Assembly: GCA_016284515.1 (NCBI GenBank)
Contig: JAEEOY010000290.1
Location: 1,951 to 65,950, forward strand
Reading direction: 5' to 3'
DNA length: 64,000 nucleotides
Origin: Kiritimatiellia bacterium
Lineage (GTDB): Bacteria > Verrucomicrobiota > Kiritimatiellia > RFP12 > UBA1067
Shown: in pieces, positions 1,918 to 62,215 of the stretch
Position numbering within the stretch: position 1 is the stretch's first letter
Layout: the number at the start of each line of letters is the position of its first letter
Translations under genes and position numbers: made by a program
The notes under the pieces: model-generated
Databases searched by the model: none
What the model was told of the DNA's origin: nothing
The model's input: the letters and a program-made list of their open reading frames with translations, nothing else

Positions 1918-1930
1918 GTTGCCTTTGTCA

Positions 1931-1959
1931 TTGACCAACTTGCGGAATAATGGTATCAT
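1931..1959 (+). promoter_or_regulatory. sigma70-type promoter of the giant-protein operon
   Basis: TTGACC (1931-1936), 17-nt spacer, then TGgTATCAT (1951-1959). Confidence 0.6.
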
Positions 1960-2031
1960 TTTAGTCAGAAGGGGGGATGCGGTGTGTGCTGCGTCTTGTC
2001 TTCTAACGAAAAAGGGGAAGAGGAGGGGTAT

Positions 2032-8940: not shown

Positions 8941-8962
8941 TGAAACAACAAAAGGGGAGTAA

Positions 8963-38001: not shown

Positions 38002-38445
38002 ATGAAAAAGACAATTTTTGCATTAGGTTTGATGGCCGCACTTGTGGCTAAAGCAGACTACCTTTATTGGATGGTGGATGATGCCGCGTCTAGTGACTAC
38101 AACTGGACTTCTGCGACGATCTATCAGGATACATCTCCTTTGGCGAGTGCGACATCCGATGACTTTGATGTTATTGGATATAGTACGGCCTCGCTAAATC
38201 CAGGATATGATGTGGCAACCTACTACATTGAGCTGTATAATGGGAGTACTCCTGTGGCAAAAGCTTCGCTGGGTTATAATGACATCAAGAACAATATTTT
38301 CACGGACAACTCTATGGGGATTCCCACAAGAATGCCGTTTGTTGCTCCTGCAGGTTCCTTCCAGGCGGTTCCTGAGCCGACGAGTGGGCTGTTGTTCCTC
38401 GTGGGTGGAATGCTTCTCGGGCTGCGGCGCAAGCGCCGCGTCTGA
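38002..38445 (+). CDS. small exported PEP-CTERM protein (P4)
   Basis: Signal peptide MKKTIFALGLMAALVAKA. C-terminal VPEPTSGLLFLVGGMLLGLRRKRRV (38368-38442) is the PEP motif, a TM helix and a basic tail, i.e. an exosortase sorting signal. Confidence 0.85.
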   Translation: MKKTIFALGLMAALVAKADYLYWMVDDAASSDYNWTSATIYQDTSPLASATSDDFDVIGYSTASLNPGYDVATYYIELYNGSTPVAKASLGYNDIKNNIFTDNSMGIPTRMPFVAPAGSFQAVPEPTSGLLFLVGGMLLGLRRKRRV

Positions 38446-46428: not shown

Positions 46429-47595
46429 ATGGCGGGCGTGGGCGGAAGATTCGATCTCGACGAGCTTAGGCGCGAAGCCGAGGCGGAGAAGAAGGCCGCC
46501 CGCGTCCGCTCCATCGTTTCCAATGTCATTCTCGTCGTCCTGCTGATCGCCGTCGCCGTAGGCGGCAAGATCGGCTGGGACAAATGGCAGGAGAAGCGCG
46601 AGGCGGACCGCATTGCGGAGGAGGCGGCGATAGCCGCCGCCGAGAAGGCCGCCGCGGAGAAGAAGGCGGCCGAGGCCGAGCGCGAGCGGATTGCAGCCGA
46701 GAAGCGCGAGGCGGAGAAGAAGGCGCGCGAAGAGGCCAGGGAGGCGGAGCGCAAGGCCCGCGAGGAGAAGATCGCCGCCGAGAAGAAGGCCCGCGAGGAG
46801 GAGCGCCGCCGCAAGGAGGAGGAGCGGCGCTACGCCGAGGAGCACAAGGCGGAGCAGCAGGAACTCAAGAAATACGAGGACCGCGTTGTCTCTGACCTCA
46901 GTTTCCAGATTGGCGACCACCTCTGCTACGGATACGGCATAGACGACATCGTCGACTCTTCGGTCGACGAGACGCGCTGGGCCGAGCTTGCCCAGCGCGC
47001 GCAGAAAAAGCAGACAATAGAATTTCTGGAGGAGCTCCGCGGCGAGTCCGTGACGAACAGCTTCTCCGACACGCGCTATCCAGACCGCGACACATTCGCG
47101 AAGCTCCTGGACAATCTGGACGCGGAGCGCTTCACGATTGTGCTGAGGCTCAAGGAAGAGGCCCGCGGGAGAAAGCTGGCGCTCGTGGCGCCCAGCATAG
47201 AGAAGGGGCTTGAGGAGCCCGAGGGCGCGCGGCAGATGAAGTCCGGCGCGCGCGTGATCGGCTGGACCGTCCCGTTCGCGTACGGCGACAAGCTGCCGCT
47301 ATTCCTCGTCGACCAGACGACTGCAGATGCCTTCGCGCGCGAGTGGACGCAGCTCCGCCGCAGGCTGCGCAGCGAGGCCGCCAAGCTTGACAACCGCGAC
47401 GAATACATCGCGCGCAGACTTGAGAAGGAGCTGCCCGATTTCGTGAAGTCGATGAAGATCGAGGTCACAACGCCTCCGCCGGAGGACAAGCCCGCGAAGG
47501 AGTCCGCCCAGAAGCGCGAGTCCAAGCCCAAGGCCACTATGAAGGGCAGCAATTCCGACATCCGGACCCTTGGCGGACCCAGGAACCGCCGCTGA
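46429..47595 (+). CDS. membrane-anchored protein with long Lys/Glu/Ala-rich helical region (TolA-like architecture), function unknown
   Basis: GAGGGAGG precedes ATG 46429. TM segment IVSNVILVVLLIAVAVGG. About 110 aa of AEKAAAEKKAAEAERERIAAEKREAEKKAREE.. followed by a ~250-aa C-terminal domain. The track ORF 45988 is a 5' extension overlapping purM. Confidence 0.55.
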   Translation: MAGVGGRFDLDELRREAEAEKKAARVRSIVSNVILVVLLIAVAVGGKIGWDKWQEKREADRIAEEAAIAAAEKAAAEKKAAEAERERIAAEKREAEKKAREEAREAERKAREEKIAAEKKAREEERRRKEEERRYAEEHKAEQQELKKYEDRVVSDLSFQIGDHLCYGYGIDDIVDSSVDETRWAELAQRAQKKQTIEFLEELRGESVTNSFSDTRYPDRDTFAKLLDNLDAERFTIVLRLKEEARGRKLALVAPSIEKGLEEPEGARQMKSGARVIGWTVPFAYGDKLPLFLVDQTTADAFAREWTQLRRRLRSEAAKLDNRDEYIARRLEKELPDFVKSMKIEVTTPPPEDKPAKESAQKRESKPKATMKGSNSDIRTLGGPRNRR

Positions 47596-47640
47596 CAAGC
47601 CTTCCCGCGTTGCGTTGCGCATGTTTCTTTCCGCCGCCAC

Positions 47641-47670
47641 TTGACATACATACCCGAAGGTATGTATAAT
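47641..47670 (+). promoter_or_regulatory. sigma70 promoter with embedded TetR-type palindromic operator
   Basis: TTGACA (47641-47646), 18 nt, TATAAT (47665-47670). Palindrome ATACATACC-cgaa-GGTATGTAT (47646-47667) spans the spacer and the -10. ATG 47681 is 10 nt downstream. Confidence 0.65.
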
Positions 47671-47680
47671 ATGCGTTCAA

Positions 47681-48298
47681 ATGGCTCGTAAAAGGAAAGA
47701 GGACGCAGAGAAGACGCGCACGAGGATACTCGCGAGCGCGCTCTCGCTTTTTGCGAAAAAGGGCTACGAGCACACGACGTTCACCGACATCGCGGCGCGG
47801 CTGAAGATGACGAAGGGTGCGGTCTACTGGCATTTCGAGTCGAAGGAGGCGCTCCTCATCGCGCTCGTCGACGAAATGCTCGAGAAGTTCACGCGCCAGA
47901 CCGAGGCGATCATGCCGAAGGACGAGCTCACGTTCCTCGCGGTGTCGGACATGATGGTCGAGAACGCGAGGCTCGTGGTGGACGACGCGTGGGGCCGGGC
48001 GTTCTTCATGCTGATGAGGACGCAGATCCGCTGGGGCGAGGAGTCGATGCACGGGGTGCGCGAGGAGCTCCTCACCAACCAGCGGTTCGGTCCGTGGCAC
48101 GCGTTCATCCGCGCCGTCGAGAACGACAAGGCCGCTGGGCGCGTGCGTCCCGACGTGGACGCGACGGAGGTAGCCAACATCTGCGTCTCCGTGTGGGACG
48201 GGATGGTGCAGGGCAGGATAGACGGATTTCTGCGCACGGACATGTGCCTCACGATACGGCATGCGTTCGACGCGGTATGGGGATACATAAAGGCTTGA
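47681..48298 (+). CDS. TetR/AcrR-family transcriptional repressor
   Basis: N-terminal HTH TRTRILASALSLFAKKGYEHTTFTDIAARLKMTKGAVYWHFESKEAL. Confidence 0.9.
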   Translation: MARKRKEDAEKTRTRILASALSLFAKKGYEHTTFTDIAARLKMTKGAVYWHFESKEALLIALVDEMLEKFTRQTEAIMPKDELTFLAVSDMMVENARLVVDDAWGRAFFMLMRTQIRWGEESMHGVREELLTNQRFGPWHAFIRAVENDKAAGRVRPDVDATEVANICVSVWDGMVQGRIDGFLRTDMCLTIRHAFDAVWGYIKA

Positions 48299-48335
48299 AA
48301 ACAAAGGCTTAAAAGGCAAAGGAAAGGCGGAAGAA

Positions 48336-49568
48336 ATGTCCGAAAACAACGAGAAGAGCACGGGATCCGCGATTGGGTCCATCATCGGGACGATTGTCCT
48401 CGCGGCGGTCTGCGTCGCGGGCGGATGGATAGCGAAGGACATGTGGCCGAAGGGCGACGGCGGCGCGGCGGCCGCGCAGGCCGCGAAGCTCGCTGCGATG
48501 GCGGCGATGCAGCAGACCGTCGCTGTCACGAACGCGGAGATGCGCGTCTACAACCTCCCCGAGAGGTTCGTCGCGCACGCGGAGGCGGTGCAGGAGGTCG
48601 ATCTCCTTCCGCAGATCGACGGATACGTCAGGGAGATCAAGTTCAAGGAAGGCGACGTCGTTAAGGAGGGGCAGGTCCTCTACGTGATCGACGACGAGCG
48701 CTACCAGGCGGTCGCCAACCAGCGCAAGGCCGACCTCGCGGCGGCCGAGGCAGAGGCGCGCAGGGCGGAGCGCTACTTCGAGCGAATGGAGAAGGCGGAC
48801 GAGCGCGGCATCACGCAGCTCGAGCGCGACAACGCGGAGGCTGCGGCGGAGAAGGCGAAGGCCGCGGTCCTCCAGGCGAAGGCGAACCTCGTCGTCGCGG
48901 AGTACGACCTCAAGAAGACCACGGTGTTCGCTCCGATCTCCGGGCAGATCGGCAAGTCGTCCGCCCACGTCGGCGACTATGTCGCGCCGTCGAAGGGCGC
49001 GCTCGCGAAGATCGTGCAGATCGACCCGATCCGCGTCTCGTTCCCGCTCACCGACCGCGCCTACATCGCGTGGCGGCAGGCGCAGCGCGAGGGGAAGGAC
49101 TATGCGTTCCGCATGAGGCTCATCCTCCCCGACGGAAGCGAATACGACCGCGAGGGCGTGTGGGACTTCGACGACAACCAGATGTCTCGCGAGACGGCGT
49201 CGATCATGATGCGCCTCAGGTTCCCGAACCCGGAGCGCCTGCTCATTCCGAACAGCTACGTGACGCTCCTCACCGACTACCAGGAGCCCCCGAGCTATCC
49301 GTCCGTCCCGCAGCAGGCGCTTGTCGACCTTCCCGGCGGGAACCAGGGCGTGTGGATCCTGAAGGACGACATGACGGTCGAGCAGCGTCCCGTGGAGACG
49401 AAGGAGGCGTTTGGCGGATGGACCCCGCTCGTGAAGGGCGTGAAGGAAGGCGAGCGCGTCGTCATCTCCGGCATCTCCAAGCTCGGTCCCGGCGTGAAGG
49501 TCGCGCTCGTCCAGCCGACCTCCAACGACGACATCAACGCGAACCACAAGTCCCCGATCGAGGAGTAG
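48336..49568 (+). CDS. efflux RND transporter periplasmic adaptor subunit (MFP)
   Basis: N-terminal TM, then FKEGDVVKEGQVLYVIDD (lipoyl-like), a coiled coil, VFAPISGQIGKS and C-terminal beta-barrel segments. Confidence 0.88.
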   Translation: MSENNEKSTGSAIGSIIGTIVLAAVCVAGGWIAKDMWPKGDGGAAAAQAAKLAAMAAMQQTVAVTNAEMRVYNLPERFVAHAEAVQEVDLLPQIDGYVREIKFKEGDVVKEGQVLYVIDDERYQAVANQRKADLAAAEAEARRAERYFERMEKADERGITQLERDNAEAAAEKAKAAVLQAKANLVVAEYDLKKTTVFAPISGQIGKSSAHVGDYVAPSKGALAKIVQIDPIRVSFPLTDRAYIAWRQAQREGKDYAFRMRLILPDGSEYDREGVWDFDDNQMSRETASIMMRLRFPNPERLLIPNSYVTLLTDYQEPPSYPSVPQQALVDLPGGNQGVWILKDDMTVEQRPVETKEAFGGWTPLVKGVKEGERVVISGISKLGPGVKVALVQPTSNDDINANHKSPIEE

Positions 49569-49636
49569 TCTAAAGCATAAAACACCATGAACGGCGACAT
49601 CAAGGCGTACGCGACGCTTGCGGCTTAATTTGCAAC

Positions 49637-52186
49637 ATGGTTCAGACATTCGCATATCCGTTGTCACTCCGCGAGGAGGAGCTGAAAAACAAAGTCGCAG
49701 CCGACTGGTTCGGCGCGTTCGACTGCACACGCATAATCGGGAACATCGACTTCTGCGTCGACCTCCCGGCGACCGAGCTGGCACTCGGCTATGACGCGGA
49801 GCCCATTCTGTGGGCGGAGGCAAAGGCCGGAAACAAGAAGGACATCGTAGCCAGTTTCGTGCAGCTTATCCTGACCATCGGCGGAGGGCACACGGCGGAC
49901 AGGAATCTCCCTCCTCACTTTCTCGGCGCATTCGACGCGGAGAAGATCGCGTTCATCCCATACAATGCCGTGTTAGGCGTTCTCGGGAAGAACGACTTCG
50001 ACTGGACGGTCGCACCGAGCGACCACGAGTCAAAGGAGTTCAAGGAACTCTACACGCTCGCAAAGGGCGTGATAGAGCGTGAGAAGTTGCTGTTCAGATA
50101 TGCGGAGGACGGCGATATTCTGCGGCGGTTCATCAAGTCCAACTTCAAGTCGGGACGCCGCGACATCTCGAAGATACTAATCAACAAGAACAACTTCACG
50201 CACATCTATCGGCAGTGGCGGGAAATCGTCATGCCGTTCATCGACGCGCCGTGGGACGTGCTGAAGAAGAAGTACAACATCTACGACCGGGACTTCTATC
50301 TCGCCGAGATGAACATCGACGACAACGGAACGACCGACATCGCCGACGATCGCGTCGCCAACGACTTCTACATCACGTTCGACGCGAGATCCACGACGCC
50401 GTATACCGTGAAGCGCAAGAACGAGGACGATTTGTTCAATATCCTTGCCTTCGGGTTCAAATCCGGCGGACTCGATGCGTACGCGGAATTCTGGCGCCGT
50501 TACAAGCGTCCGCCGCGCAAAGACTACTGGAACTTCATCGTGAACCGTCTCGACCTCCTTGTGCCGCAGGACGTGCGCGAGCGCAAGGGCTCGTTCTTCA
50601 CGCCGAAAAAATGGGTGGAGCTGTCGCAGCACTATCTCGAGCTGGCGCTTGGCGAAAACTGGCAGGACGAGTATTACGTCTGGGACTGCTGCGCCGGTAC
50701 GGGGAACCTCCTCGCCGGACTCACGAACAAATACCGCATCTGGGCGTCGACCTTGGACCAGCAGGATGTCGACGTGATGCGCGAGCGCGCGAAGAACGGC
50801 GCGAACCTGCTTGAAAGCCACATCTTCCAGTTCGACTTCCTCAACGACTCCTTCGACAGACTGCCGAAGGGCCTCAAGGAAATCATCGACGCCCCCGAAA
50901 AACGCCGTAGACTCGTCATCTACATCAACCCACCGTATGCGGAGGCGGGGGACGCGAAGCAAAGATCCCACACCGGTGCGAACAAGACTGATGTCTCCGT
51001 AGTCCATGCAACCTACGATAAGTATCTCGCAAAAATAGGCATCGCCGGACGAGAGTTGTTTGCGCAGTTCCTCATGCGGATCCACGACGAAATTTCAGAG
51101 TGCATCGTCGGGCAGTTCTCAACGTTGAAACATTTGATGGGCCCGAATTTCAAGTTGTTCCGGCAGGCGTTCCATGGTGCGCTGGCGCGATGCTTCATTA
51201 CGCCCGCCGACACATTCGACAATGTGAAAGGCCAGTTTCCAATTGGCTTCTTTGTGTGGCGGCTGGGAGAAAGATCAACTCCGACTTCTACCGATGGCTT
51301 CGCTAACGCTTCGCCTTCTTTAAACGCCGCAGCGGTAGCGGAGGCTTCGGATAAATCGGAGTTAAAAATTAACGGCGTGTTCACCGAGACGACGGCGGAT
51401 GTGTATGATCGCAAGGGGGAGTTTATTGGAACTAAGACGATCCTTGCGTATGACAATGAACGCTCCATAAACGACTGGCTTATTGAGACCCGGAAGAGAC
51501 CGACAGCGCTCAACCTCGGTTTCCTCTCCTGCCGTTCCCATGATGTGCAACACGTTAACGACATTTTCTTCCGAAACGAGAAGTCTCTCATAAAGTCGGC
51601 CCGAGGCTCGTGGATCACCGATGCCAATCTTGTGGAGGCGTCAGTCTATGTAGCGGTTTGCCATAGCATTGATGCTGACTGGCTGAATGATCGCGACCAG
51701 TTCCTTTTTCCTAATGATGGTTGGAAGGATGATGGGAGATTCCATCTTGATGGTATTGTATACACGCTTTTTGCCAACGCCAACAACATCAAGTCCGCCG
51801 ACGGCGTGAACCACTGGATACCGTTTACAGAAGAGGAGGTTGGAGCGAAGGATTGCTTCAAGAGCCACTTCATGAGCGAATATCTCCGCGTCTTTGCGCC
51901 TCTGCGTGAGAAATTATCCCCCGCTGCTACGTCTGTCCTCGATGCCGGGCGCGAGTTGTGGCGGTACTACCACGCGCAGTTAGGCGCGAATCCCGACGCC
52001 TCCTACTACGACATACGGCTTCACTTCCAGGGCGTGACGACCGACGCGCGGGGCAAGGCGAAGATGAACTCCGACAGCAAGGACGCGAAATACACGGAGC
52101 TCATCGGCAATCTACGCGCCGCGATGAAGCGACTTGCGAAAGAGATCGAACCGAAAGTCTACGAATACGGGTTCTTGAAGAAGTAA
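49637..52186 (+). CDS. type IIG-like restriction-modification protein: N-terminal PD-(D/E)xK-like motif plus gamma-class N6-adenine DNA methyltransferase plus C-terminal specificity-like region
   Basis: D53-x7-E61-A-K63 (YDAEPILWAEAK, 49811-49825). Motif X GSFFTPKKWV. Motif I VWDCCAGTGNLL. Motif IV NPPY (50927-50938). ~400-aa C-terminal region. Confidence 0.7.
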   Translation: MVQTFAYPLSLREEELKNKVAADWFGAFDCTRIIGNIDFCVDLPATELALGYDAEPILWAEAKAGNKKDIVASFVQLILTIGGGHTADRNLPPHFLGAFDAEKIAFIPYNAVLGVLGKNDFDWTVAPSDHESKEFKELYTLAKGVIEREKLLFRYAEDGDILRRFIKSNFKSGRRDISKILINKNNFTHIYRQWREIVMPFIDAPWDVLKKKYNIYDRDFYLAEMNIDDNGTTDIADDRVANDFYITFDARSTTPYTVKRKNEDDLFNILAFGFKSGGLDAYAEFWRRYKRPPRKDYWNFIVNRLDLLVPQDVRERKGSFFTPKKWVELSQHYLELALGENWQDEYYVWDCCAGTGNLLAGLTNKYRIWASTLDQQDVDVMRERAKNGANLLESHIFQFDFLNDSFDRLPKGLKEIIDAPEKRRRLVIYINPPYAEAGDAKQRSHTGANKTDVSVVHATYDKYLAKIGIAGRELFAQFLMRIHDEISECIVGQFSTLKHLMGPNFKLFRQAFHGALARCFITPADTFDNVKGQFPIGFFVWRLGERSTPTSTDGFANASPSLNAAAVAEASDKSELKINGVFTETTADVYDRKGEFIGTKTILAYDNERSINDWLIETRKRPTALNLGFLSCRSHDVQHVNDIFFRNEKSLIKSARGSWITDANLVEASVYVAVCHSIDADWLNDRDQFLFPNDGWKDDGRFHLDGIVYTLFANANNIKSADGVNHWIPFTEEEVGAKDCFKSHFMSEYLRVFAPLREKLSPAATSVLDAGRELWRYYHAQLGANPDASYYDIRLHFQGVTTDARGKAKMNSDSKDAKYTELIGNLRAAMKRLAKEIEPKVYEYGFLKK

Positions 52187-52227
52187 TGACCAACGGCAGA
52201 GGACAAGAAAGGCAATAGACAACAACG

Positions 52228-54873
52228 ATGATGGAGACAATCCAGCATGAGTTGATGCGCGCCTGCCTTATGGGGCTGGCGGCGTCGCTTGCCGTACTTG
52301 CGTTTCGGTCGTCGTTTGTTCGTGGCTCGCTTGCACGGCTGACATTGCTGTGGCGTGGCATGACGACATTCGGACGCGCCGCCGTATGCTCGTTTCTTCT
52401 CGTCGGAATCCTTGTTGGCGGAGACAAAACAAACAACGTCAACAATCTGCCGCCGCAGATTATGCAGGGCGGAGGTTCTTTTGAGACAGGATTTACAGGA
52501 TTGGCAGGATTATCAGCGGCGTTGCTTTACCCGCCATCGTCTCCAAATCCTGTTAATCTTGTTAATCCTGTCCAAAACCAATCCCCCGTCCAAACCACTA
52601 GCGAGGACATCGCTCGCGGATATCGTCAGGTCTGTGTTACGGCAAACGAGAGCGTTTCCTACACCATGCCGACAGGCGCGGCCATAGTTGGCAACTGGCA
52701 CAGACGCGGCACATTTAGCGAGTGGATGCGTCTCGATCTTGGCGGCTTCGCCTTTCCTCTTGGTACGAACGAAACAGCGTATTCGGCGTTCTCCGTTTTC
52801 AACGACGGCAAGATACGTCCCACACCGCGCGATGACGCGCACGAGATTTGCGCTGTAGGTGTTCCGATGCTTGCAATGCAGGGCGCGAGCCGCTTCTGGG
52901 TTGCGGAATGTGATGACGGATCGAAGCTTCTCACATGGGAGAATCTCTTCTTGAATGCCGACACGAACACGCCCGTCAACGCGCAGATACAGCTTTATCC
53001 AAACGGCGGCTTCGCGACTCGTTCAAACGATGTCGAGACAGTCTACGAGCGCATAAATCCGCACGACTGGGACGGGGACGGAAAAGAGAACGGAACCGAC
53101 GCGAATCCGACTGTCTGCGACGGCGACTTCTTTGGGGTGGCAAATGCCTTGCCGACAAACGCAAATCCGGATGCCTACTACTGGCTTGATATTTCGGTGA
53201 CTGGGGTCCTTGGCGTTGCATCTATCAGCATCACATGCGATGGACCGAGCGATCTCGGCGACCATGCGATAATTGCGCGAACGAACGAAGTCTGCCATGT
53301 CCCGCTCCTCGCTGGCGCGACATACGATGTGGAAAGTAATTTGCCGATCTCTCTCTCCACCGTATCAAGCGAGTATGCCACGATTGAAACGAATTCTGAG
53401 AGGTCCTTGACCGTGACTCTGCCGCTTGAGTTTTCGTTTGAGCGAATCCAGATGAGAGGGGCGATGGACGCAGTCAACTACGGCGTGTCATCTTCACCAA
53501 TCAATGTCTTCCCGTCCGTCGTCTCCTGTTCGGGTGGATGTTGCTCCCTTCAAGTTGTAGACGGTGCCCTACGTTGGGTTTGCTCGCCGACATGCACATG
53601 CGGAGGCGCGGATCATCTCCTTGATTCGACGGTGCGCTGGGAAGGGTATTCAACGTCGTTCTTTGGGTATGCCGCGTGCGGGTGCGGTGATGATGCGCCG
53701 GATCCAGTGCCGCAGTCTGGGCCGTATGCCGCGTCGGTTTCTGTCGGTTTCAGCAAGAACGCCGTTATCTTCGAGGATGGATATTTGGATCAACCAGGGC
53801 GGTTTGTCCCGCGAAGATCATCGGCGACGGCACTGACGATCCATGCAAACGGTGGGTCTAACGGCGGCGTTCTGTCTGTGTCTTCTACGAACCTTTCAAA
53901 GCTCCAGAAGAATTCCGGCCCCGCATTCCCCGCACAGTCGATTGCAGTTCCCGCTGACCACTCCATCACATACGAGATGAACTATGTGGGATTGTCGGCG
54001 AGTGATACGACAAACGATGTCGTCGTAAGCGCGACGCTGACGGAAAATGGGACGGGCGCGATCTCTACGAGTGCTGCCTCGGCGACGGTGGTAAAGGTTG
54101 AACTGGAATCGCGCAACACTGCATCTGCGAATAAGGATAGGCATCGGCATACATTTGGCGTCTTAGAGGCATTTGATTATCGGCAATATCCTTCTGATGC
54201 TCCCGTAGCATGGTACTTTTGTGAGGGTGAAACAGAGCTGCTACCTTTTTCCCCTGGGTATATGATATTGAATGCGACAACAAATGAGACATCAGGTGGG
54301 CATTGCGAGTTTCGCGCAACATGCGGGGGTGCGGCATATACCAACGATTTTCTAATGGTGATGCCTCGCATTGAGGTCCAAAACCCGCGATGCAACGAAA
54401 ACCAGACAATGATATACGGTGAGGCAGGGTGGTTATTGCTTCATATGGATTTCCTTGTCGGTCCGTTTTATGTTTCATTCATGGGTGTAGATTTTATGGA
54501 GATACCCGACGAAAGCGGAAATTGCCCACATTCCGGTTATTACAACGATGTCACTAAAGGAGGATATCTCTCACATTGTGCGTTGGCTGGAGCGGGAAAA
54601 TGGAATAGAGTTAACGGGAATGGATATTGGTGCCGAGACATGGCAGGTCGCGCTGGTAGGTATGAGGCACCATGGTCTAATGGCTGGAAGGAATGGCCAA
54701 TTCCAATAGGCTGGGGCATGAATCAGATACTGCTGGGACAGTTTGACGCACCTCCAACAACGCAAAAGTTTACGTTGAGTTCGAATGGGACCTTTACAAT
54801 TCGAAAGTTCTGGTTCGAAGCCACCAGGGGCATTTTAGACGTTCTTCCAACCATAAGGAGAGTCGAGGAATGA
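52228..54873 (+). CDS. 881-aa membrane-anchored/exported protein, unknown family (Cys cluster, TSP3-like Ca-binding motif)
   Basis: N-terminal hydrophobic segments (LMGLAASLAVLAF, AAVCSFLLVGILVGG). DWDGDGKENGTDANP is thrombospondin-type-3-like. Cys-rich block CSGGCCSLQVVDGALRWVCSPTCTCGG..ACGCGDD. Confidence 0.6.
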   Translation: MMETIQHELMRACLMGLAASLAVLAFRSSFVRGSLARLTLLWRGMTTFGRAAVCSFLLVGILVGGDKTNNVNNLPPQIMQGGGSFETGFTGLAGLSAALLYPPSSPNPVNLVNPVQNQSPVQTTSEDIARGYRQVCVTANESVSYTMPTGAAIVGNWHRRGTFSEWMRLDLGGFAFPLGTNETAYSAFSVFNDGKIRPTPRDDAHEICAVGVPMLAMQGASRFWVAECDDGSKLLTWENLFLNADTNTPVNAQIQLYPNGGFATRSNDVETVYERINPHDWDGDGKENGTDANPTVCDGDFFGVANALPTNANPDAYYWLDISVTGVLGVASISITCDGPSDLGDHAIIARTNEVCHVPLLAGATYDVESNLPISLSTVSSEYATIETNSERSLTVTLPLEFSFERIQMRGAMDAVNYGVSSSPINVFPSVVSCSGGCCSLQVVDGALRWVCSPTCTCGGADHLLDSTVRWEGYSTSFFGYAACGCGDDAPDPVPQSGPYAASVSVGFSKNAVIFEDGYLDQPGRFVPRRSSATALTIHANGGSNGGVLSVSSTNLSKLQKNSGPAFPAQSIAVPADHSITYEMNYVGLSASDTTNDVVVSATLTENGTGAISTSAASATVVKVELESRNTASANKDRHRHTFGVLEAFDYRQYPSDAPVAWYFCEGETELLPFSPGYMILNATTNETSGGHCEFRATCGGAAYTNDFLMVMPRIEVQNPRCNENQTMIYGEAGWLLLHMDFLVGPFYVSFMGVDFMEIPDESGNCPHSGYYNDVTKGGYLSHCALAGAGKWNRVNGNGYWCRDMAGRAGRYEAPWSNGWKEWPIPIGWGMNQILLGQFDAPPTTQKFTLSSNGTFTIRKFWFEATRGILDVLPTIRRVEE
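52487..52570. repeat. phased heptamer inverted-repeat array inside a CDS (3x CAGGATT ... 3x AATCYTG, 9-nt period)
   Basis: CAGGATT at 52487, 52496 and 52505. AATCCTG, AATCTTG and AATCCTG at 52546, 52555 and 52564. The 25-nt arms are 21/25 complementary across a 34-nt spacer. 84 nt is exactly 28 codons. Confidence 0.7.
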
Positions 54874-55673
54874 AGAGGAAATTGATAGTGGCCGCCGGAA
54901 TGGTTGTTGCGGTGGTTGGCGGAGTGACGGGCACGGCGCTTTGCCTGTCGCGCTGTCTATCCGTTTCATTTGAATGTCGGGTCGATTTTCTTTATGAGTT
55001 CGACAGGCCGTTCAAGGATGTTCCGGGGCGCGGAACACTCAATGCTGACGAGAGCAATCGTAACTCCCGATATGAGAGTATTTTAGATGACTTCAGGCGC
55101 GATATGCTATTTTGCGCGTCTAAAGACGGGATCATTAGGTGTCAGCGAGACTCGGCCTTTCAGGGCGAACCTGATTCGCGTATCACGGCTGTACTCTCGT
55201 CGGTTCGTCTCGATGTCACAGGAATGCCGAGCACTAACTTCGTATATCCGTGCAGGCTTGTCCTGTCTGATGGCGACAGGAGGGCCCTTGATGTGTATGC
55301 ACGTTTTTGCATGGATAAGGTCAAGGAGCAATTGGAAGAGGAGAACATGATTTCGATTGGCAGGGGTACAACAAGAGAGTTTCAGGTGTTAAAAAAGTCC
55401 GAGAAGAAGATAGAAGAACTCGAGAAAGCCATTGTAAAAGGCGAGGTCTCTCCATCTGTGAAGAATGAGTTGCGTAATGAGAGACGGACTGTCGATGAGA
55501 TGAAAAAGAAGATTGAAGAGATCAAGGAGTTAGTGTTGTCAACGGGCGGGCGGCGTATAATCTATGAGACGCCGCCGGAGATATCGTGGGTTATCCGGCG
55601 CAAATCACGGAAACCCTCGGCTGCCGTGGGCGATATGGCGCATTCACCAGTCTCATCCGAGGAGATGAAATGA
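54870..55673 (+). CDS. N-terminally anchored coiled-coil protein, unknown family
   Basis: ATGA overlap with the upstream stop. AAGGAG at 54855-54860. TM segment LIVAAGMVVAVVGGVTGTAL. Charged coiled coil KKSEKKIEELEKAIVKGE..DEMKKKIEEIKEL. Confidence 0.6.
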   Translation: MKRKLIVAAGMVVAVVGGVTGTALCLSRCLSVSFECRVDFLYEFDRPFKDVPGRGTLNADESNRNSRYESILDDFRRDMLFCASKDGIIRCQRDSAFQGEPDSRITAVLSSVRLDVTGMPSTNFVYPCRLVLSDGDRRALDVYARFCMDKVKEQLEEENMISIGRGTTREFQVLKKSEKKIEELEKAIVKGEVSPSVKNELRNERRTVDEMKKKIEEIKELVLSTGGRRIIYETPPEISWVIRRKSRKPSAAVGDMAHSPVSSEEMK

Positions 55674-56182
55674 GTAGACTGAAATCTTATTTATTCGCTC
55701 CTGCTGCCTTGCTGTGCGCGCTTGCCATGCCGCTCTCTCTCTTGGCTGTGCGGACCGTTGCGCTGCCGTCGCTGCCGACAGGGGAACTGCCCAACAGCGA
55801 GGTCGTGACGAACATTGCGCTTGACGTCAATTCCGAAAGGCTCATTTGCCTGACTTTTTCTCTTGAGCTGGACGCGAGCACGTCGAACGGAGTCTCGATC
55901 GCCGTAGGCGCGGCTGCGGGAGAAACACTGATGCTGGAAGAGGCGGATTTCGAGTGGGGCTACGACTGCGGGAAATGGTTCTACGCCGACACAGCGACCG
56001 GCGAAGTCGAGGAGTGGACAGATGTCTTCACTGGGAGGGTTTCGCGGACATTGTCAATCGCTGGCTGCGACTTCAATCCACTGTGGAATCGACTTAAGAT
56101 CACAAAGCGGGGGACGGGCGATATCGAGATAGATTCGTCGTTGACCGTCGAGAACAAGAAATTTTCAATCAGGCTGCGCTGA
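55670..56182 (+). CDS. small exported protein, unknown family, ending in the KFSIRLR tail
   Basis: ATGA overlap with the upstream stop. Signal peptide MSRLKSYLFAPAALLCALAMPLSLLA. 170 aa. The track ORF 55586 is over-extended. Confidence 0.6.
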   Translation: MSRLKSYLFAPAALLCALAMPLSLLAVRTVALPSLPTGELPNSEVVTNIALDVNSERLICLTFSLELDASTSNGVSIAVGAAAGETLMLEEADFEWGYDCGKWFYADTATGEVEEWTDVFTGRVSRTLSIAGCDFNPLWNRLKITKRGTGDIEIDSSLTVENKKFSIRLR

Positions 56183-56184
56183 TT

Positions 56185-56193
56185 TGATATAAT
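56185..56193 (+). promoter_or_regulatory. extended -10 promoter (TGaTATAAT) driving the RND gene from the island edge
   Basis: Starts 3 nt after the island's last stop codon. ATG 56207 is 13 nt downstream. Confidence 0.5.
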
Positions 56194-56206
56194 AAGAGGC
56201 ACAATC

Positions 56207-59200
56207 ATGAAATTATCGTTAAGAAAATCCATTGACGAGATAAAGACGTTCTCGAGGATCTTCGTGGAGCGTCCGCGCTTCGCGATGGTCATCGCGATCG
56301 TGCTGTCCATGGCCGGCACGATGTCGATCTTCAACCTGCCCGTCACGCAGTATCCGCGCGTGACGCCTCCTTCGATACAGGTGAGCTACAACTATCCGGG
56401 CGCAAACGCGAAGGAGGTGCTGAACACCGTCGCGATGCCGCTCGAGGACGAGGTGAACGGCGTGGACGACATGCTCTACATGACGGGCCAGTGCGGCGAC
56501 GACGGAAGCTACTCGCTCAACGTCTCGTTCGAGGTCGAGTCTGACCGCGACATGGACCAGGTCAAGGTGCAGAACCGCGTCGTGCAGGCGGAGCCGAAGC
56601 TCCCCGCGGAGGTCAGACAGCTCGGCGGACGAATCCGCGCGCAGAACTCCGACATGCTCGGCTTCATCGCGGTACGCTCGCCGAACGGGACGCTCTCGCG
56701 CCTGCAGATATCCGACTACATCTACGCTAACATCCAGCCGGTGCTCCTGCGAGTCCCGGGCGTGGGCGACGCGACGGTGTACGGTCCGAAGCTCTCGATG
56801 CGCGTCTGGCTCGACCCCGCGCGCATGGCCGCGCAGGGAATGAACACCGAGGAGGTGATGGCGGCGGTCTCGAAGCAGAACATCCAGGCCTCGCTCGGAT
56901 CCGTCGGCGCGGCGCCCACGGGCGGACACGCCGCGTGGACGATGTCGCTCCTCGCGAAGGGACGCCTCATGTCCGCGAAGGAGTTCGACGACATCGTCGT
57001 GCGGCGCGACGCGAACGGAGGCGTCGTGCGCCTGAAGGACATCGCGCGCACGGAAATCGGCGAGCAGAACTACATGTTCACCGGACAGCTCAACGGCGGG
57101 AACGCCGTCTCGATCGCTCTCCAGCAGAAGCCGGGCGCGAACGCCATCGCGACGATGAAGGCGATACGCAAGGCGATGGCGCAGCTCGAGGAGGCGTTCC
57201 CGGACGACCTCGAGTGGGTCATCCCCTACGATGCGACGGACTACGTGAGCACGTGCATCGACGAGATCGTGTACACGCTGCTCATCACGTTCGGACTCGT
57301 CGTGCTCGTCTGCTACCTGTTCCTGCAGGACTGGCGCGCGACGCTGATTCCGTGCCTCACCATCCCCGTGTCGCTTTCCTCGACGTTCATCCTGATGGCC
57401 TTCCTCGGCTACTCGATCAACATCCTCACTCTGTTCGGACTCGTCCTCGCGATCGGCGTCGTGGTAGACGACTGCATCGTCGTGGTGGAGCGCGTCCAGT
57501 TCCTCATCGAGACGCGCGGCCTCAACTCGAAGGAGGCGGCGATCCAGGCGATGAGCGACGTGACCTCCGCCGTCATCGCGACGACGCTCGTCCTTCTCGG
57601 CATCTTCGTCCCCGTCGGCTTCATGAGCGGCATCACCGGACGCATCTACCAGCAGTTCTCCGTGACGCTCTCCGCTGCGGTCTGCTTCTCGACCGTGTGC
57701 GCGCTCACGCTCGCGCCGGCGCTCTGCTCGCTCATCCTGCACGAGGCGAGGCCCTACAAGCACGGACCTCTCGCGTGGTTCAACTGGGCGATCAACTCGT
57801 TCAAGGGACTCTTCGTCAGGCTCGCGAAGTGGCTTGCGTCGCGCATCTTCCTTGCGCTCGCGCTCCTCGTGCTCACGGTCCTGCTGACCGTCCAGATGTT
57901 CCGCTCGACGCAGACGGCGTTCCTCCCCGAGGAGGACCAGTGCGTCGTCTTCGCATCCATGGAGATGCCCGAGGGATCGACCCGCGACCGCACGCGCGAC
58001 GTGTCGCTCCGCGCAGTTGATCTCCTCCTCAAGGTCCCCGAGGTGCGCAGCGTCCTCACGATCACCGGCTTCTCGATGGTCGGCGGACGCGGCGAGAACC
58101 AGTCGATGGTCATCATCGACCTCAAGGACTGGTCGGAGCGCAAGGGCAAGGACCAGAGCGCCGCGGCGATGGTGCAGAAGCTGCAGGCCTACCTCGCGCA
58201 GGTCCCGGAGCCGAACTGGAAGGTGTTCATGCCTCCGGCCATCCCCGGACTCGGCATGACGAACGGAATCAGCGTCGACCTCCAGGACAAGGGCACGGCG
58301 GATCCGATCCGCATGGACGGTGTGAAGAACCGCGTCCTCGCCGAGCTCAACGACAAGACGAAGCATCCTGACATCATGGTCGCGTACTCGGGCTACAACG
58401 CCGTCACGCCGCACCTCCGCTTCAACCTCGACCGCGTGAAGGCCGAGATGTACAAGGTGCCGGTAGCGACGGTCTACTCGACGCTGCAGAACTACCTCGG
58501 CTCGCGCTACGTAAACGACGTCAACCTCGGTACGCAGGTGAACCGCGTGACGGTTCAGGCAGACTGGGACGGACGCGCCACGCCCGAGGCCGTCTCGCGC
58601 CTCTACGTGCGCGGCGAGAACGGGGCGATGGTGCAGATCGGCTCGCTCGGTGACATCACGCGCGAACTCGGTCCGCGCACGGTCTACACGCGCGACAAGT
58701 ACGTCTCGTGCGGCATAACCGTGATGCCGATGCCCGGCGTCGCATCCGGCAAGATCATGAACGACCTCAGGCAGGTCTTCAGGGACGTCCTTCCGGAGGA
58801 CTACGGATACGACTGGGCGGCGCTCTCCTTCCAGGAGGCGCGCAACGAGGGCGGCGCGGCGCCGCTCATCGCGCTCGCGATTCTGTTCGGATACCTCTTC
58901 CTCGTCGCGCAGTACGAGTCGTGGACGATTCCGCTCCCCGTGATGCTCTCGATCTTCGTCGCCGTGTTCGGCGCGCTGTGCGGACTCAAGTGGTTCGGCA
59001 TCTGGATGACGGGCTCGCCGTATCCGCTGTCGATATACGCGCAGCTCGGCCTCGTCCTTCTCGTCGGCCTTGCCTCCAAGAATGCGATCTTGATCGTCGA
59101 GTTCGCGAAGGACAAGCGCGAGAACGAGGGCTACTCGATCGCGGACGCCGCGGGCGCGGCGGCTGGCGAGCGTCTCAGGGCGCTTTTGATGACGGCCTTG

Positions 59201-59434
59201 ACGACGCTCCTCGGCACTCTCCCGATGATGATCGCGACGGGCGCGGGCGCGGCGAGCCGCAACCACCTCGGCACGACCGAGTTCTGGGGCATGTTCGCGT
59301 CCGTGTCGTTCGGAATCCTCCTGGTTCCGGGGCTCTACGCGCTCTTCCAGACGTGGCGCGAGAACGTGAAGCGCTTCTTCGCGTACCTCTCCGCCACGGC
59401 GCTCCGCCGCCGCCAGCTCAAGGCCCGCGCCTGA
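56207..59434 (+). CDS. efflux RND transporter permease (HAE1/AcrB family) with atypical AT-rich 14-codon N-terminal extension
   Basis: 1075 aa, 12-TM pattern. [35 protein letters not shown] and [16 protein letters not shown] are canonical RND segments. Confidence 0.92.
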
Positions 59435-59449
59435 CGGTGGCGTTTCCGA

Positions 59450-59479
59450 TTGACGGGAGCGGAGAAAAAAGAGTAAAAT
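59450..59479 (+). promoter_or_regulatory. sigma70-type promoter upstream of hom
   Basis: TTGACG (59450-59455), 18 nt, TAAAAT (59474-59479). Confidence 0.45.
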
Positions 59480-59507
59480 ATCCGCTTCAATTGCAAAAAG
59501 GCAGAAT

Positions 59508-60803
59508 ATGAAGCAGATTGGAGTCGGAATACTCGGATTCGGAACCGTCGGCGCAGGAGTCGCCGACGGTCTTCTGAAGCATCGCGACGTCATGGCGAAG
59601 CGCCTCGGCGTCGACATTGTACTCAAGAAGATTGCGGACCTCGACATCACGACGGACCGCGGCATCAGCGTCCCCGAAGGTGTGCTCACGACGGACGCAG
59701 GATCCGTCCTCGCTGACCCCGAGGTGGACATCATCGTCGAGACGATCGGTGGCACGGGGATCGCGAAGACGTTCGTCCTCACGGCGCTCGGCAACGGAAA
59801 GTGCGTCGTCACCGCGAACAAGAAGCTCCTCGCGGAGCACGGACGCGAGATATTCGAGACGGCGGCGAAGAACGACGTCGACATCTACTTCGGCGCGTCC
59901 GTCGGAGGCGGAATCCCGATCATCCGCGTGCTGCGCGAAGGCCTTGCCGGAAACGAGATCGAGTCCATACACGGCATCCTCAACGGAACGTGCAACTACA
60001 TTCTCACGCGCATGGAGAACGAGGGGCTTCCCTTCGACAATGTCCTTAAGGACGCGCAGAAGCTCGGCTACGCGGAGGCCAATCCCTCCCTCGACATCGA
60101 CGGATTCGACACCGCGCACAAGGCGTGCATCCTCGCGGCGCTCGCGTACGGCTTCCAGCCGACGCTCGACCAGGTGCAGGTCGAGGGAATCCGCAACCTC
60201 GCCGGCGCAGACGTGAAGTACGCCGCGGACTTCGGCTACCGCATCAAGCTCCTCGCCGTCGTGGCGAAGGAGGGAGACGAGGTGGAGGTCGGGGTGCATC
60301 CGACGCTCATCCCGTTCTCGCACATGCTCGCCAACGTGAACGACGCGTTCAACGCCGCGTACGTGAAGGGCGACATGTCGGACTACACGATGTACTATGG
60401 ACGCGGCGCGGGCCGCGCGCCGACGGCTTCGACCGTGATCGGCGACATCGGCGACATCGCGCGCAACCTCGCCTACGACGAGACGCGCTATGCGCGCGGC
60501 GTGCCGAACTACGCGGAGGGCAAGGTGCGCCTCCGCGCGGCGGGCGACATCAAGTCGAAGTACTACCTCAGGTTCATGCTCACGGACCGTCCCGGCGCGA
60601 TGGGCGTCGTCGCGTCCGCGCTCGGCAAGCACGGCGTGTCCATCTCCGCGCTGTCGCAGAAGGAGTCGTCCGAGGGCAACCTCCCCGTCCCCGTCGTCGC
60701 GATGACGCGCGTCGCGAAGGCGTCCGACATCGACGCGGCGCTCGAGGAGATCAAGGCCGCCGGCGTCACGGGCGAGGACCCCGTGAAGCTCAGGGTCCTG
60801 TAA
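59508..60803 (+). CDS. hom: homoserine dehydrogenase (with C-terminal ACT domain)
   Basis: GILGFGTVGAGV, VVTANKKLLA, FGASVGGGIPII, GILNGTCNYILT and AQKLGYAEANPSLDIDGFDTAHK are canonical segments. Confidence 0.92.
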   Translation: MKQIGVGILGFGTVGAGVADGLLKHRDVMAKRLGVDIVLKKIADLDITTDRGISVPEGVLTTDAGSVLADPEVDIIVETIGGTGIAKTFVLTALGNGKCVVTANKKLLAEHGREIFETAAKNDVDIYFGASVGGGIPIIRVLREGLAGNEIESIHGILNGTCNYILTRMENEGLPFDNVLKDAQKLGYAEANPSLDIDGFDTAHKACILAALAYGFQPTLDQVQVEGIRNLAGADVKYAADFGYRIKLLAVVAKEGDEVEVGVHPTLIPFSHMLANVNDAFNAAYVKGDMSDYTMYYGRGAGRAPTASTVIGDIGDIARNLAYDETRYARGVPNYAEGKVRLRAAGDIKSKYYLRFMLTDRPGAMGVVASALGKHGVSISALSQKESSEGNLPVPVVAMTRVAKASDIDAALEEIKAAGVTGEDPVKLRVL

Positions 60804-60814
60804 AGGCCGAGGAC

Positions 60815-60846
60815 CTTTCAACTTTTCAACCTTTCAACATTTCAAC
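60815..60846 (+). repeat. four tandem octamers (nTTTCAAC) directly upstream of the aspartate kinase start
   Basis: CTTTCAAC TTTTCAAC CTTTCAAC ATTTCAAC at 60815-60846. ATG is at 60857. Confidence 0.8.
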
Positions 60847-60856
60847 TTCCAAAGAC

Positions 60857-62215
60857 ATGAAAGTCTGTAAATTCGGCGGTTCGTCCCTCGCGGACGCGAC
60901 CCAGCTAAACAAGGTGATCGACATCGTCCTGGCGGATCCCGCCAGGCGCATCGTTGTGGTTTCCGCCCCCGGCAAGCGCGACAAGGGCGACACGAAGGTG
61001 ACGGACCTCCTCATCGCGCTCGCGGACGCGGCGCTTGCGGGCGAGAACACGGACCGCCAGTTCGCGGCCGTCGTCGAGCGCTATGCGTCCATCGCGGACG
61101 AGCTGAAGCTCGGCGATGACATCGTGAGCGAGATATCGCGCGACATAAGGGGACGTCTTGCGCAGTGCGCGGAGCTCAGCCCCGCGGAGTTCAAGGACCT
61201 CATGAAGGCCGCCGGCGAGGACAACAACGCGAAGCTCGTCGCTGTCGCGTTCGCGGCGCGCGGCAAGAAGGCGCGCTATGCGGGTCCGAAGGAGACGGGC
61301 ATGATCCTGCGCGGCGAGTTCGGCGACGCGACGCTCGATCCCGAAAGCTACGCGACGCTCTCGCGCGCGTTCTCCAACTTCGAGGGGATCGTCATCTACC
61401 CCGGCTTCTTCGGCTACACGAAGGAGGGCAAGGTCGCGACGTTCCCGCGCGGCGGCTCGGACATCACGGGCTCGATTCTCGCGGCCGCTGTGTGCGCGGA
61501 TGTCTACGAGAACTTCACGGACGTCGACTCGGTGTATCCGGTCGATCCGCGCATCGTTCCCGAGGTGAAGGAGGGCATTCCGACGATGACCTACCGCGAG
61601 ATGCGCGAGCTTGCGTACGCGGGCTTCGGCGTGTTCGCGGACGACGCGGTGATTCCGGCGGTCAGGGCGAGGATCCCGATCAACATCCGCAACACCAACC
61701 ACCCGGGCGAGCCCGGCACGATGATCCAGCAGTCCCGCAGGGTCGTGCCCGGCACGGTCGTGGGCGTCGCGAGCGCGGACGGATTCTGCAACATCGTCGT
61801 CGAGAAGTACCTGATGAACCGCGAGATCGGCTTCGGACGCCGGCTTCTGCAGATCCTCGAGAGCGAGCATATCCCCTACGAGCACATGCCCTCGGGCGTC
61901 GACTCGCAGTGCATCGTCATCAAGGAGCAGTATCTTCCGAAGGAGGTCGAGCGCCGCGTGGTGGCGACGATAAAGCGCGAGCTCGAGCCCGACTTCGTGA
62001 CGGTCGAGCGCGACCTCACGATGCTGATGGTCGTGGGCGAGGGAATGTGCTACACGCCCGGCATGCTCGCCAAGGCGTGCCTCGCGCTCGCGTCCGCTGG
62101 AATCTCCATGTCGATGGTGAACCAGGGTTCCAGCGAGGTCTCGTTCATGATCGCCATCAGGAAGCAGGACCGCGACAACGCCGTCCGCGCGCTCTACAAG
62201 GCGTTCTTCGGCTGA
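60857..62215 (+). CDS. aspartate kinase (monofunctional, with ACT domains)
   Basis: MKVCKFGGSSLADA, VVVSAPGKRDKGDTKVTDLL, FPRGGSDITGSILA, and C-terminal ACT-like LTMLMVVGEGM and ISMSMVNQGSSEVSFMIAI. The track ORF 60125 is an out-of-gene 5' extension. Confidence 0.9.
   Translation: MKVCKFGGSSLADATQLNKVIDIVLADPARRIVVVSAPGKRDKGDTKVTDLLIALADAALAGENTDRQFAAVVERYASIADELKLGDDIVSEISRDIRGRLAQCAELSPAEFKDLMKAAGEDNNAKLVAVAFAARGKKARYAGPKETGMILRGEFGDATLDPESYATLSRAFSNFEGIVIYPGFFGYTKEGKVATFPRGGSDITGSILAAAVCADVYENFTDVDSVYPVDPRIVPEVKEGIPTMTYREMRELAYAGFGVFADDAVIPAVRARIPINIRNTNHPGEPGTMIQQSRRVVPGTVVGVASADGFCNIVVEKYLMNREIGFGRRLLQILESEHIPYEHMPSGVDSQCIVIKEQYLPKEVERRVVATIKRELEPDFVTVERDLTMLMVVGEGMCYTPGMLAKACLALASAGISMSMVNQGSSEVSFMIAIRKQDRDNAVRALYKAFFG

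Follow-up and report, generated by a model that had tools for sequence, protein, structure and literature searches.

Defence islands and hotspots, known from enterobacteria and satellites, hold variable accessory or defence cargo between conserved core genes, and polymorphic toxin or contact-dependent inhibition loci join a conserved N-terminal part to a variable C-terminal part, with a cognate gene downstream. Among palindromic elements, REP/REPIN elements occur with RAYT transposases, and Rickettsia palindromic elements sit in-frame in genes. In Kiritimatiellae, which are abundant and almost unstudied gut and rumen bacteria, we analysed a 64,000-nt stretch of contig JAEEOY010000290.1 (assembly GCA_016284515.1, positions 1,951 to 65,950 of the forward strand; hereafter the window), where an insertion inside an efflux operon carries a methyltransferase-like gene, M849, followed by three coupled genes encoding the proteins A881, B267 and C170 (the A-B-C module). 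A first-pass annotation had proposed that these three are envelope proteins of unknown family, tied to a type IIG-like modification enzyme in a single operon on a horizontally acquired island. Our preferred reading, to which we give about an even chance, sees in A-B-C a recombining envelope display module that varies between strains and travels as hotspot cargo, with M849 as a separable co-resident.

Results

The insertion is cargo in a hotspot within an efflux operon

The insertion lies between the genes for a membrane-fusion protein (MFP) and an RND pump, and its GC content (0.51-0.55) is below that of the flanks (about 0.63). A scan of metagenome loci with the MFP protein retrieved 80 orthologous loci. 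In the closest of them (L029-L032, MFP 95-99% identical) the MFP and RND genes are only 11 nt apart, and locus L029 aligns to the window on both sides of the insertion at 97.6-97.8% identity (L029 1-1710 with window 47857-49566; L029 1744-7728 with window 56231-62215). Where the window has the insert, the empty site has 33 nt made up of the intergenic spacer and the first eight codons of the RND gene. The codons now in their place (56207-56230) came with the insert: they are AT-richer and encode MKLSLRKS instead of MKLPLRPA, the former being the usual RND start peptide in other lineages of the operon, which points to homologous recombination via the flanking genes as the way in which the insert arrived. 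The empty site in near-identical strains bears out the horizontally acquired island of the first-pass annotation.

The same junction is empty in about 38 orthologous loci (gap of 7-95 nt) and occupied in at least 12, with the cargo always co-oriented with the operon. Locus L033 holds an A-B'-C module without M849, L047 an M849 fragment followed by C and A, and L058 a three-gene array; elsewhere the cargo consists of SBF-type transporters, a Tat-signal Fe/Mn superoxide dismutase, a Fic/VbhA-type protein, a DUF4062-HATPase_c_4 protein with a RAYT-like gene, a sodium-dependent transporter or an AAA ATPase. Such a mixture of empty and variously filled sites makes the MFP/RND junction a cargo hotspot inside the operon, and the insertion of the window is accessory cargo in this intra-operon recombination hotspot. 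A second case of cargo inside a transporter operon is found in L023 (1-17654; also L024 and L025), where three A-C pairs and an M849 homologue lie between the genes for an ABC-transporter ATPase and an FtsX/MacB-type permease, in the order ABC ATPase, C-A-265-M-A-241-C-A-C, FtsX permease.

No integrase was present at the hotspot in the loci examined and no shared attC-like end emerged from the junction comparison, so that an integron gene cassette was dropped as a candidate. A phage or plasmid origin of the cargo was likewise rejected: A881 had no match among plasmids and M849 none among phage sequences, and a search of 2.9 million viral contigs with the A and C families returned a single match, on a contig that looks like host DNA.

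A scan of the insert, made against the sigma-70-type consensus for promoters, found no promoter-like or terminator-like site above chance level. Judging from its sequence, the insert brings along no evident promoter or terminator, and its genes are probably transcribed together with those of the efflux operon, for which a candidate promoter precedes the TetR gene (Table 1). The extended -10-like TGnTATAAT right behind the C170 stop is kept after window-type C stop codons in the window, in L033 (~5216) and in L023 (~12025), whatever gene comes next; this element may mark a conserved end of the cassette or serve as a promoter reading outward into the RND gene.

Three tightly coupled genes of undescribed families

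As first annotated, ATGA start/stop overlaps join A881 to B267 and B267 to C170, and 41 nt separate the M849 stop (52186) from the A881 start; the RND gene starts 24 nt past the C170 stop. Tight coupling of the three genes therefore stands, but the proposed single operon turns out to be the host efflux operon that received the insert. Hydrophobic segments are indeed present at the N-termini of A881 (residues 8-31 and 45-65), B267 (residues 4-30) and C170 (residues 6-33, signal-peptide-like). GC content at third codon positions, taken from crude gene calls in high-GC DNA, is 0.74 for M849, 0.56 for A881, 0.57 for B267 and 0.66 for C170, and about 0.8 in host genes.

The assignment to unknown families was upheld by searches with hidden Markov models (HMMs) and of PDB: A881, B267 and C170 matched nothing in Pfam, NCBIfam, PADLOC and PHROGs, none of the three has a match among PDB sequences, and profiles of the A and C families find no relative there either. 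The fold of A881 is only generically Ig-like. PADLOC-DB 2.0 gave nothing for M849, A881 and C170, and for B267 only a chance-level CasR match (E 0.014) on the coiled coil. There are no extra copies of the A, B, C or M genes within the window, and Rfam returned no RNA family for window 47000-60000. Looking up the exact sequences of A881 and the MFP retrieved no identical record, and the literature on Kiritimatiellae combined with restriction-modification or surface proteins yielded nothing relevant.

Table 1. Insertion, cargo genes, parts of A881 and host efflux operon, with nucleotide positions in the window
Feature	Position (nt)	Strand	A881 residues	Basis or description
Candidate promoter of the whole TetR-MFP-insert-RND unit, TTGACA-18-TATAAT	47641-47670	+		12/12 sigma-70-type consensus, 11 nt upstream of TetR start
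TetR-family regulator of efflux operon	47681-48298	+		Pfam TetR_N, E 1.8e-17
MFP (HlyD/CusB type), left flank of insert	48336-49568	+		Pfam HlyD_D23, HlyD_3, Biotin_lipoyl_2
Strain-specific insertion, 6,664 nt	49567-56230			Alignment to empty-site strain and composition
M849	49637-52186	+		849-aa methyltransferase-like gene
A881	52228-54873	+		881 aa, open reading frame (ORF) call
A881 two-helix membrane anchor			1-66	Hydrophobic segments and AlphaFold (AF2) model
A881 disordered linker			~64-120	AF2 model
Palindromic DNA repeat in A881 linker	52471-52586			3x ACAGGATTN, 34-nt loop, 3x inverted AATCCTGTN; 9-bp units
A881 conserved beta-sandwich scaffold			121-486	AF2 model and homology boundary
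A881 acidic loop DWDGDGKENGTDANP	53065-53109	+	280-294	Calcium-binding-type DxDxDG motif
A881 Cys-rich domain ending scaffold	53539-53685	+	438-486	Invariant Cys
A881 variable head	53686-54870	+	487-881	All-beta, high-confidence model
B267	54870-55673	+		267 aa, ORF call; N-terminal membrane anchor, globular region, charged coiled coil
C170	55670-56182	+		170 aa, ORF call; secreted, mature form ~140 aa
TGATATAAT, extended -10-like TGnTATAAT right behind C170 stop	56185-56193	+		Junction comparison
RND pump (AcrB-type), right flank of insert	56207-59434	+		Pfam ACR_tran, E 1.8e-284

A881 joins a conserved scaffold to an exchangeable head

The AF2 model of A881, built on a 77-sequence alignment (mean pLDDT 81), opens with three N-terminal helices (residues 1-64) and continues as a beta-sandwich chain. 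As modelled, the A protein is made of a helical hairpin that anchors it in the cytoplasmic membrane, a disordered linker, a conserved scaffold and an exchangeable half of about 400 aa. The Arg-rich loop between the two hydrophobic helices suggests an out-in-out hairpin, so that the bulk of A881 would lie outside the cytoplasm, and an extracytoplasmic location would also fit the invariant DxDxDG loop and the Cys-rich domain. In the loop, D280, D282, D284, G285, N288 and D291 are invariant among the 77 homologues, and pLDDT is low at residues 289-304. Of the TSP3-like motif named by the first-pass annotation, the DxDxDGxxDxxD loop is thus conserved, but it occurs as a single copy that Pfam TSP_3 does not match, and the resemblance is one of motif only. 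The dense Cys block it had pointed to is invariant over the same homologues at C438, C439, C456, C458, C484 and C486, out of 23 Cys in the whole protein.

Directly after C484-G-C486 the scaffold gives way to the head: by BLASTP, A881 and the related protein P0084 are 53% identical over residues 35-486 and share nothing beyond Cys486. The head of P0084 has a His/Cys dyad-like motif (YYSGHGEHD...IIAGCAVLD; consensus YYSGHGxHD...AGCxVLD), and that of P0059 a zincin-type HEIGH motif at about residue 810. A Pfam scan of 42 A-family members gave weak reprolysin-like matches in three of them only, and on the head of A881 itself it found no match and no recognised toxin domain. Homologues of A881 fall into more than 411 clusters and those of C170 into 236 (about 500 clusters at 50% identity), and so many conserved clusters show that A881 and C170 are real genes. 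Almost all of these homologues lack annotation; those few with a name come from Kiritimatiellae metagenome-assembled genomes (MAGs) of ruminant and other guts.

The A-C pair recurs as a recombining module

Within the module, A and C are the conserved core and the third gene varies. An A-C pair is kept across 20-odd distinct loci, and in most of them the C homologue adjoins A, standing either after it (A-B-C) or immediately before it (C-A-x). The A family is multi-copy per Kiritimatiellae MAG, sometimes in tandem arrays. Identities of A881 to its relatives are discordant along the chain: anchor, linker, scaffold and head are 53, 94, 97 and 98% identical in P0001, and 56, 56, 82 and 49% in P0009, which marks the A family as a recombination mosaic. 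At a different site and without M849, locus L111 carries a copy of A-B-C with 95.9% nucleotide identity over window 52351-56017, the homology starting inside the anchor and ending inside C; an EcoRI-type methyltransferase gene and a second C-like gene lie upstream of this copy and a RarA-like gene downstream.

Methyltransferase or restriction-modification genes stand directly upstream of A/C modules in about 7-8 of some 19 distinct loci (about 40%) and belong to three unrelated families: the M849 family, EcoRI_methylase (L001, L111) and Methyltransf_32 (L006). The proposed association of the module with methyltransferase genes is accordingly seen at several loci; what did not hold is a fixed tie to the enzyme of the window, since the link with M849 is facultative and the two are separable. 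Other defence-type neighbours are HsdS (L012), an AAA_21/DUF4435 ATPase (L013) and a DUF4011 helicase-nuclease (L003, L006), which brings the loci with neighbours of this kind to roughly half of the 19 or so, as a raw count over these loci. The most defence-island-like context is that of L001, where an EcoRI-type methylase, A, B, a 260-aa protein, C and GmrSD/HNH follow each other on one strand in what looks like a single gene set (1678-8701), with only 17 nt from C to the nuclease gene and with RelB/YoeB beside them. Housekeeping or surface-protein genes are the neighbours in L008, L017 and L020, and most A-C modules are not near transporters.

C170 and B267

The AF2 model of C170 is an 11-strand jelly roll (pLDDT 78, about 90 in the core). 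Members of the C family are nearly all stand-alone proteins of 130-210 aa, and the KFSIRLR ending picked out by the first-pass annotation is conserved among them as KKFxIRLR. In the 3,093-aa protein P0474, 24 stretches match the core of the C170 profile (residues 60-127); by this profile similarity, the C fold would also be repeated as a module within a protein of adhesin-like type.

Homologues of B267 are detectable only beside the closer relatives of A881 (L001, L008, L010, L020-22, L111). Elsewhere A is followed by the gene of an unrelated protein of 210-270 aa, either N-anchored or with a signal peptide, and this gene, too, overlaps or abuts the A stop; tight coupling of A to its successor is thus seen again at other loci. 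That these downstream genes are remote homologues of one another was rejected, the best hhalign probability being 28%.

M849 is a separable methyltransferase-like unit

M849 has no hydrophobic segment or signal peptide and is cytoplasmic. The motifs DCCAGTGN (351-357), NPPY (431-434) and D38...E61-A62-K63 are invariant in 40 homologues, and the gamma-class N6-adenine methyltransferase signature (motif I plus NPPY) is present at the motif level. HMM matches of M849 are weak and score below curated cut-offs (N6_Mtase, E 0.011; MAD2 MTase, E 0.0023); N6_Mtase is weakly matched by 17 of 40 family members (best E 0.001), none of which matches the MmeI or Eco57I Pfam models at E up to 0.1. M849 has no relative in PDB by single sequence or profile, and no nuclease model in Pfam, PADLOC, NCBIfam or PHROGs matches it; its D...ExK motif is compatible with PD-(D/E)xK. 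M849 can fairly be taken as a diverged N6-adenine methyltransferase that may act as a single-chain restriction-modification enzyme. Of the earlier type IIG-like assignment, the methyltransferase motifs and the size remain, whereas neither the MmeI/Eco57I models nor PDB lend it a match, and we only infer a type IIG enzyme from the sequence.

With at least 8,000 clusters (90% identity), the M849 family far exceeds the A family in size; it has no Pfam domain, and some members contain an LPD3 insertion. Solitary members, annotated as 'hypothetical protein', occur on small plasmids of Helicobacter, Acinetobacter and Fluviibacter (NZ_KM583817.1, NZ_CP090070.1, NZ_AP022348.1). An M849 homologue lies directly upstream of A only in the window, L009 (87% identity), L023-25 (71%), L005 (27%, distant) and L047 (fragment), and most A-C modules occur without M849 (L001, L003, L006, L008, L010-L017, L020-22 and L033). 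In locus L026 an 81%-identical M849 is present and A is missing; the genes behind this M849 encode a multi-transmembrane protein, a C-like protein and a LamG protein of 2,124 aa. From this M849 without A, the L111 module without M849 and the solitary plasmid members, it follows that M849 and A-B-C are separable, and the insert consists of these two separable units. For M849 we favour a co-resident with the same island dynamics, as defence or selfish cargo, and not an obligatory partner.

A palindromic repeat in the A881 linker, and RAYT-like genes

The linker of A881 is encoded in part by a palindromic DNA repeat (Table 1), translated as TGFTGLAGLS...NPVNLVNPVQ, which has four matches in the window against none expected by chance. 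As single-stranded DNA it is predicted to fold into a hairpin of -27.9 kcal/mol (z -5.35). Copies are scattered over about 1.1 Mb of related DNA: the 9-bp repeat forms in-frame insertions in M849 homologues, two in L023 (7058-7144, 7730-7756) and one in L009 (2718-2744), and it also stands in intergenic DNA and, read in another frame, within a glycosyltransferase-like gene; L057 (20438-20510) and L013 (12559-12585) are among the loci that carry it. The repeat may help to shuffle the 5' ends of A genes. The window/L111 breakpoint (52351) is about 120 nt upstream of the linker repeat.

The insert of the window contains no RAYT gene. RAYT-like genes are found at the hotspot in L075 (12740-13477), with fragments in L053 (4873-5031), L064 (2694-2771) and L069 (11312-11416), and directly upstream of a C-A pair in L003 (8571-9335) and likewise in L011. 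The products L075_245 and L003_254 match NF047646 at E 9e-19 and 1.5e-17, below the NCBI curated cut-off. These genes may be related to the palindromic repeats.

Other exported proteins of the window

Two small signal-peptide proteins of the window (36478-37185 and 38002-38445) have N-termini that resemble, by eye only, those of two L020 proteins, one of 250 and one of 174 aa, encoded just upstream of the L020 A-B-C module (at 8277-8801 and 8858-9610). Several giant secreted proteins of 1,362-2,318 aa are encoded in the first 30 kb of the window.

Discussion

According to the preferred reading, C would bind the conserved scaffold of A, and B would be a lineage- or head-specific membrane-anchored accessory, kept in fixed ratio to A through translational coupling. 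The resulting complex would present differing binding or hydrolytic heads outward, towards other cells, phages or host and dietary polymers. The A family would diversify by recombination between paralogues, with breakpoints near the linker and at the scaffold/head junction, and whole cassettes would pass between strains by homologous recombination through conserved flanking genes.

Several points weigh against this. In a diderm cell, an inner-membrane anchor would place A in the periplasm, unless the protein is released or exported. Fold searches of A881 in PDB and BFVD gave only generic Ig-/MG-like chains (TM at most 0.15), the galectin/LamG/LNS/CBM-like resemblance of C170 to PDB folds is non-significant (best E 0.017), and the searches gave no biochemical or structural homologue pointing to function. 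Defence-type neighbours are frequent (three methyltransferase families, HsdS, GmrSD/HNH, AAA_21/DUF4435, a toxin-antitoxin pair), which fits defence too. The promoter types of the host phylum lie outside the sigma-70-type scan, so that co-transcription of the insert with the efflux operon is a conclusion we infer.

The first alternative, and the main idea of the first-pass annotation, is envelope-level defence or exclusion, in which A-B-C would mask or bind phages or mobile DNA with their variable heads, forming a two-layer cassette with restriction-modification genes. It can draw on the three unrelated methyltransferase or restriction-modification families upstream of the modules, on the L001 module set between an EcoRI-type methyltransferase and GmrSD/HNH beside RelB/YoeB, on the ATPase of L013 and the HsdS upstream in L012, on the Fic/VbhA, DUF4062-HATPase_c_4 and AAA ATPase cargo of the same hotspot, and on strain-specific presence and diversifying heads. 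We nevertheless consider it unlikely: PADLOC gave no match and no nuclease, ATPase or other effector domain was found; multiple copies per genome and tandem arrays are atypical of defence systems; housekeeping or surface-protein genes adjoin many of the modules; M849 can be separated from A-B-C; and islands and hotspots also gather non-defence cargo, such as superoxide dismutase and transporters.

A polymorphic effector-immunity system, with A carrying exchangeable toxic or hydrolytic heads on a delivery scaffold, B as an exported immunity protein or inhibitor and C as an export or activation accessory, strikes us as distinctly unlikely. The sharp conserved/variable junction at residue 486, the alternative heads with a zincin-type HEIGH or His/Cys motif and the mosaic, multi-copy, tandemly arrayed family would all suit it, as would a downstream gene that in every case encodes an exported or anchored protein, overlaps the stop codon of A and differs by head type, the His/Cys head always having its own partner family (two of two loci). 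However, the window-type head, 40-70% identical across loci, has at least six unrelated downstream families, so that the supposed immunity gene does not follow this head; A881 of the window has no recognised toxin domain; and A sits in the membrane of the cell that produces it, with a variable part of about 400 aa that far exceeds typical toxin tips. Neither T5/T6/T7 or other secretion genes in the neighbourhoods, nor orphan head-immunity arrays, were seen in the loci examined.

It is quite doubtful, in our view, that A-B-C is a new envelope-level conflict system (anti-phage exclusion or contact-dependent antagonism), whose heads are shuffled at the palindrome and at the Cys-knot junction and which travels with restriction-modification genes as promoterless, co-oriented cassettes that enter transporter operons at their gene junctions and borrow their regulation.

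That A-B-C are accessory periplasmic parts of efflux machinery, acting with the MFP/RND pump or the L023 ABC/FtsX transporter, is suggested by modules between MFP and RND genes in the window, L033 and L047 and between ABC ATPase and FtsX/MacB genes in L023, but it is essentially excluded by the empty junctions of about 38 orthologous operons, the same junction also holding functionally unrelated cargo, most A-C modules not being near transporters and the near-identical L111 module lying beside RarA; on the same grounds, a functional tie to ABC/RND transporters was rejected as a general feature.

Three unannotated protein families are defined here, one of which, that of M849, is very large; the A-B-C proteins are of an undescribed family specific to gut Kiritimatiellae. 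A-B-C itself is a recombining, multi-copy envelope module with exchangeable heads, set in the window at a precise, strain-variable hotspot in an efflux operon. If phages or competitors prove to be its target, an extracytoplasmic mechanism of the display type would join systems that otherwise work mostly in the cytoplasm; should it display adhesins or enzymes, it would be a main axis of strain-level variation in Kiritimatiellae. Strains with empty and filled sites are a natural experiment, both on the function of the cargo and on the effect of a 6.6-kb insert on pump expression.

Comparison with described systems

The MmeI-like type IIG/IIL enzymes resemble M849 in size (about 850 aa), in NPPY and CAGTGN, in an N-terminal D...ExK, in a long C-terminal region and in solitary occurrence on small plasmids; M849 differs in having no MmeI/Eco57I model match or PDB relative and in its weak N6_Mtase match. 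A shares its beta-sandwich chain with Big/MG-domain, S-layer and alpha-2-macroglobulin proteins, its best folds being complement C3, A2ML1, CD109, titin and SbsB, with phage Ig-domain proteins also among the matches of A881. With TM-scores of at most 0.14, identities of 8-13%, no thioester CxEQ in the sequence and no Pfam Big, fn3 or A2M match, A does not qualify as an alpha-2-macroglobulin, and its likeness to multi-Ig/MG proteins is one of general fold class only.

As in REP/REPIN and RAYT systems and Rickettsia palindromic elements, the linker repeat is short, dispersed and hairpin-forming, occurs both in intergenic DNA and in-frame, and is accompanied by RAYT-like genes in the same genomes; unlike them, it consists of 9-bp tandem units and is a fixed part of the A-family linker, not a sporadic insertion. 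In polymorphic toxin loci, too, a conserved N-terminal part (486 aa in A) meets an exchangeable C-terminal half at a sharp junction, with a small exported gene coupled behind it, in a mosaic and multi-copy family; A departs from them in its lack of a recognised toxin, pre-toxin or secretion domain, in its own transmembrane hairpin and in the length of its variable part.

The MFP/RND junction differs from defence-island hotspots in being inside an operon, between genes normally 7-15 nt apart, and in that all cargo is co-oriented and no integrase or att site was found; it resembles them in being either empty or variously filled, with low-GC, partly defence-like cargo exchanged through conserved flanks. 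The three protein families and the intra-operon hotspot are undescribed, and their kinds are known: variable multi-Ig surface proteins, hotspot cargo and orphan restriction-modification-like genes.

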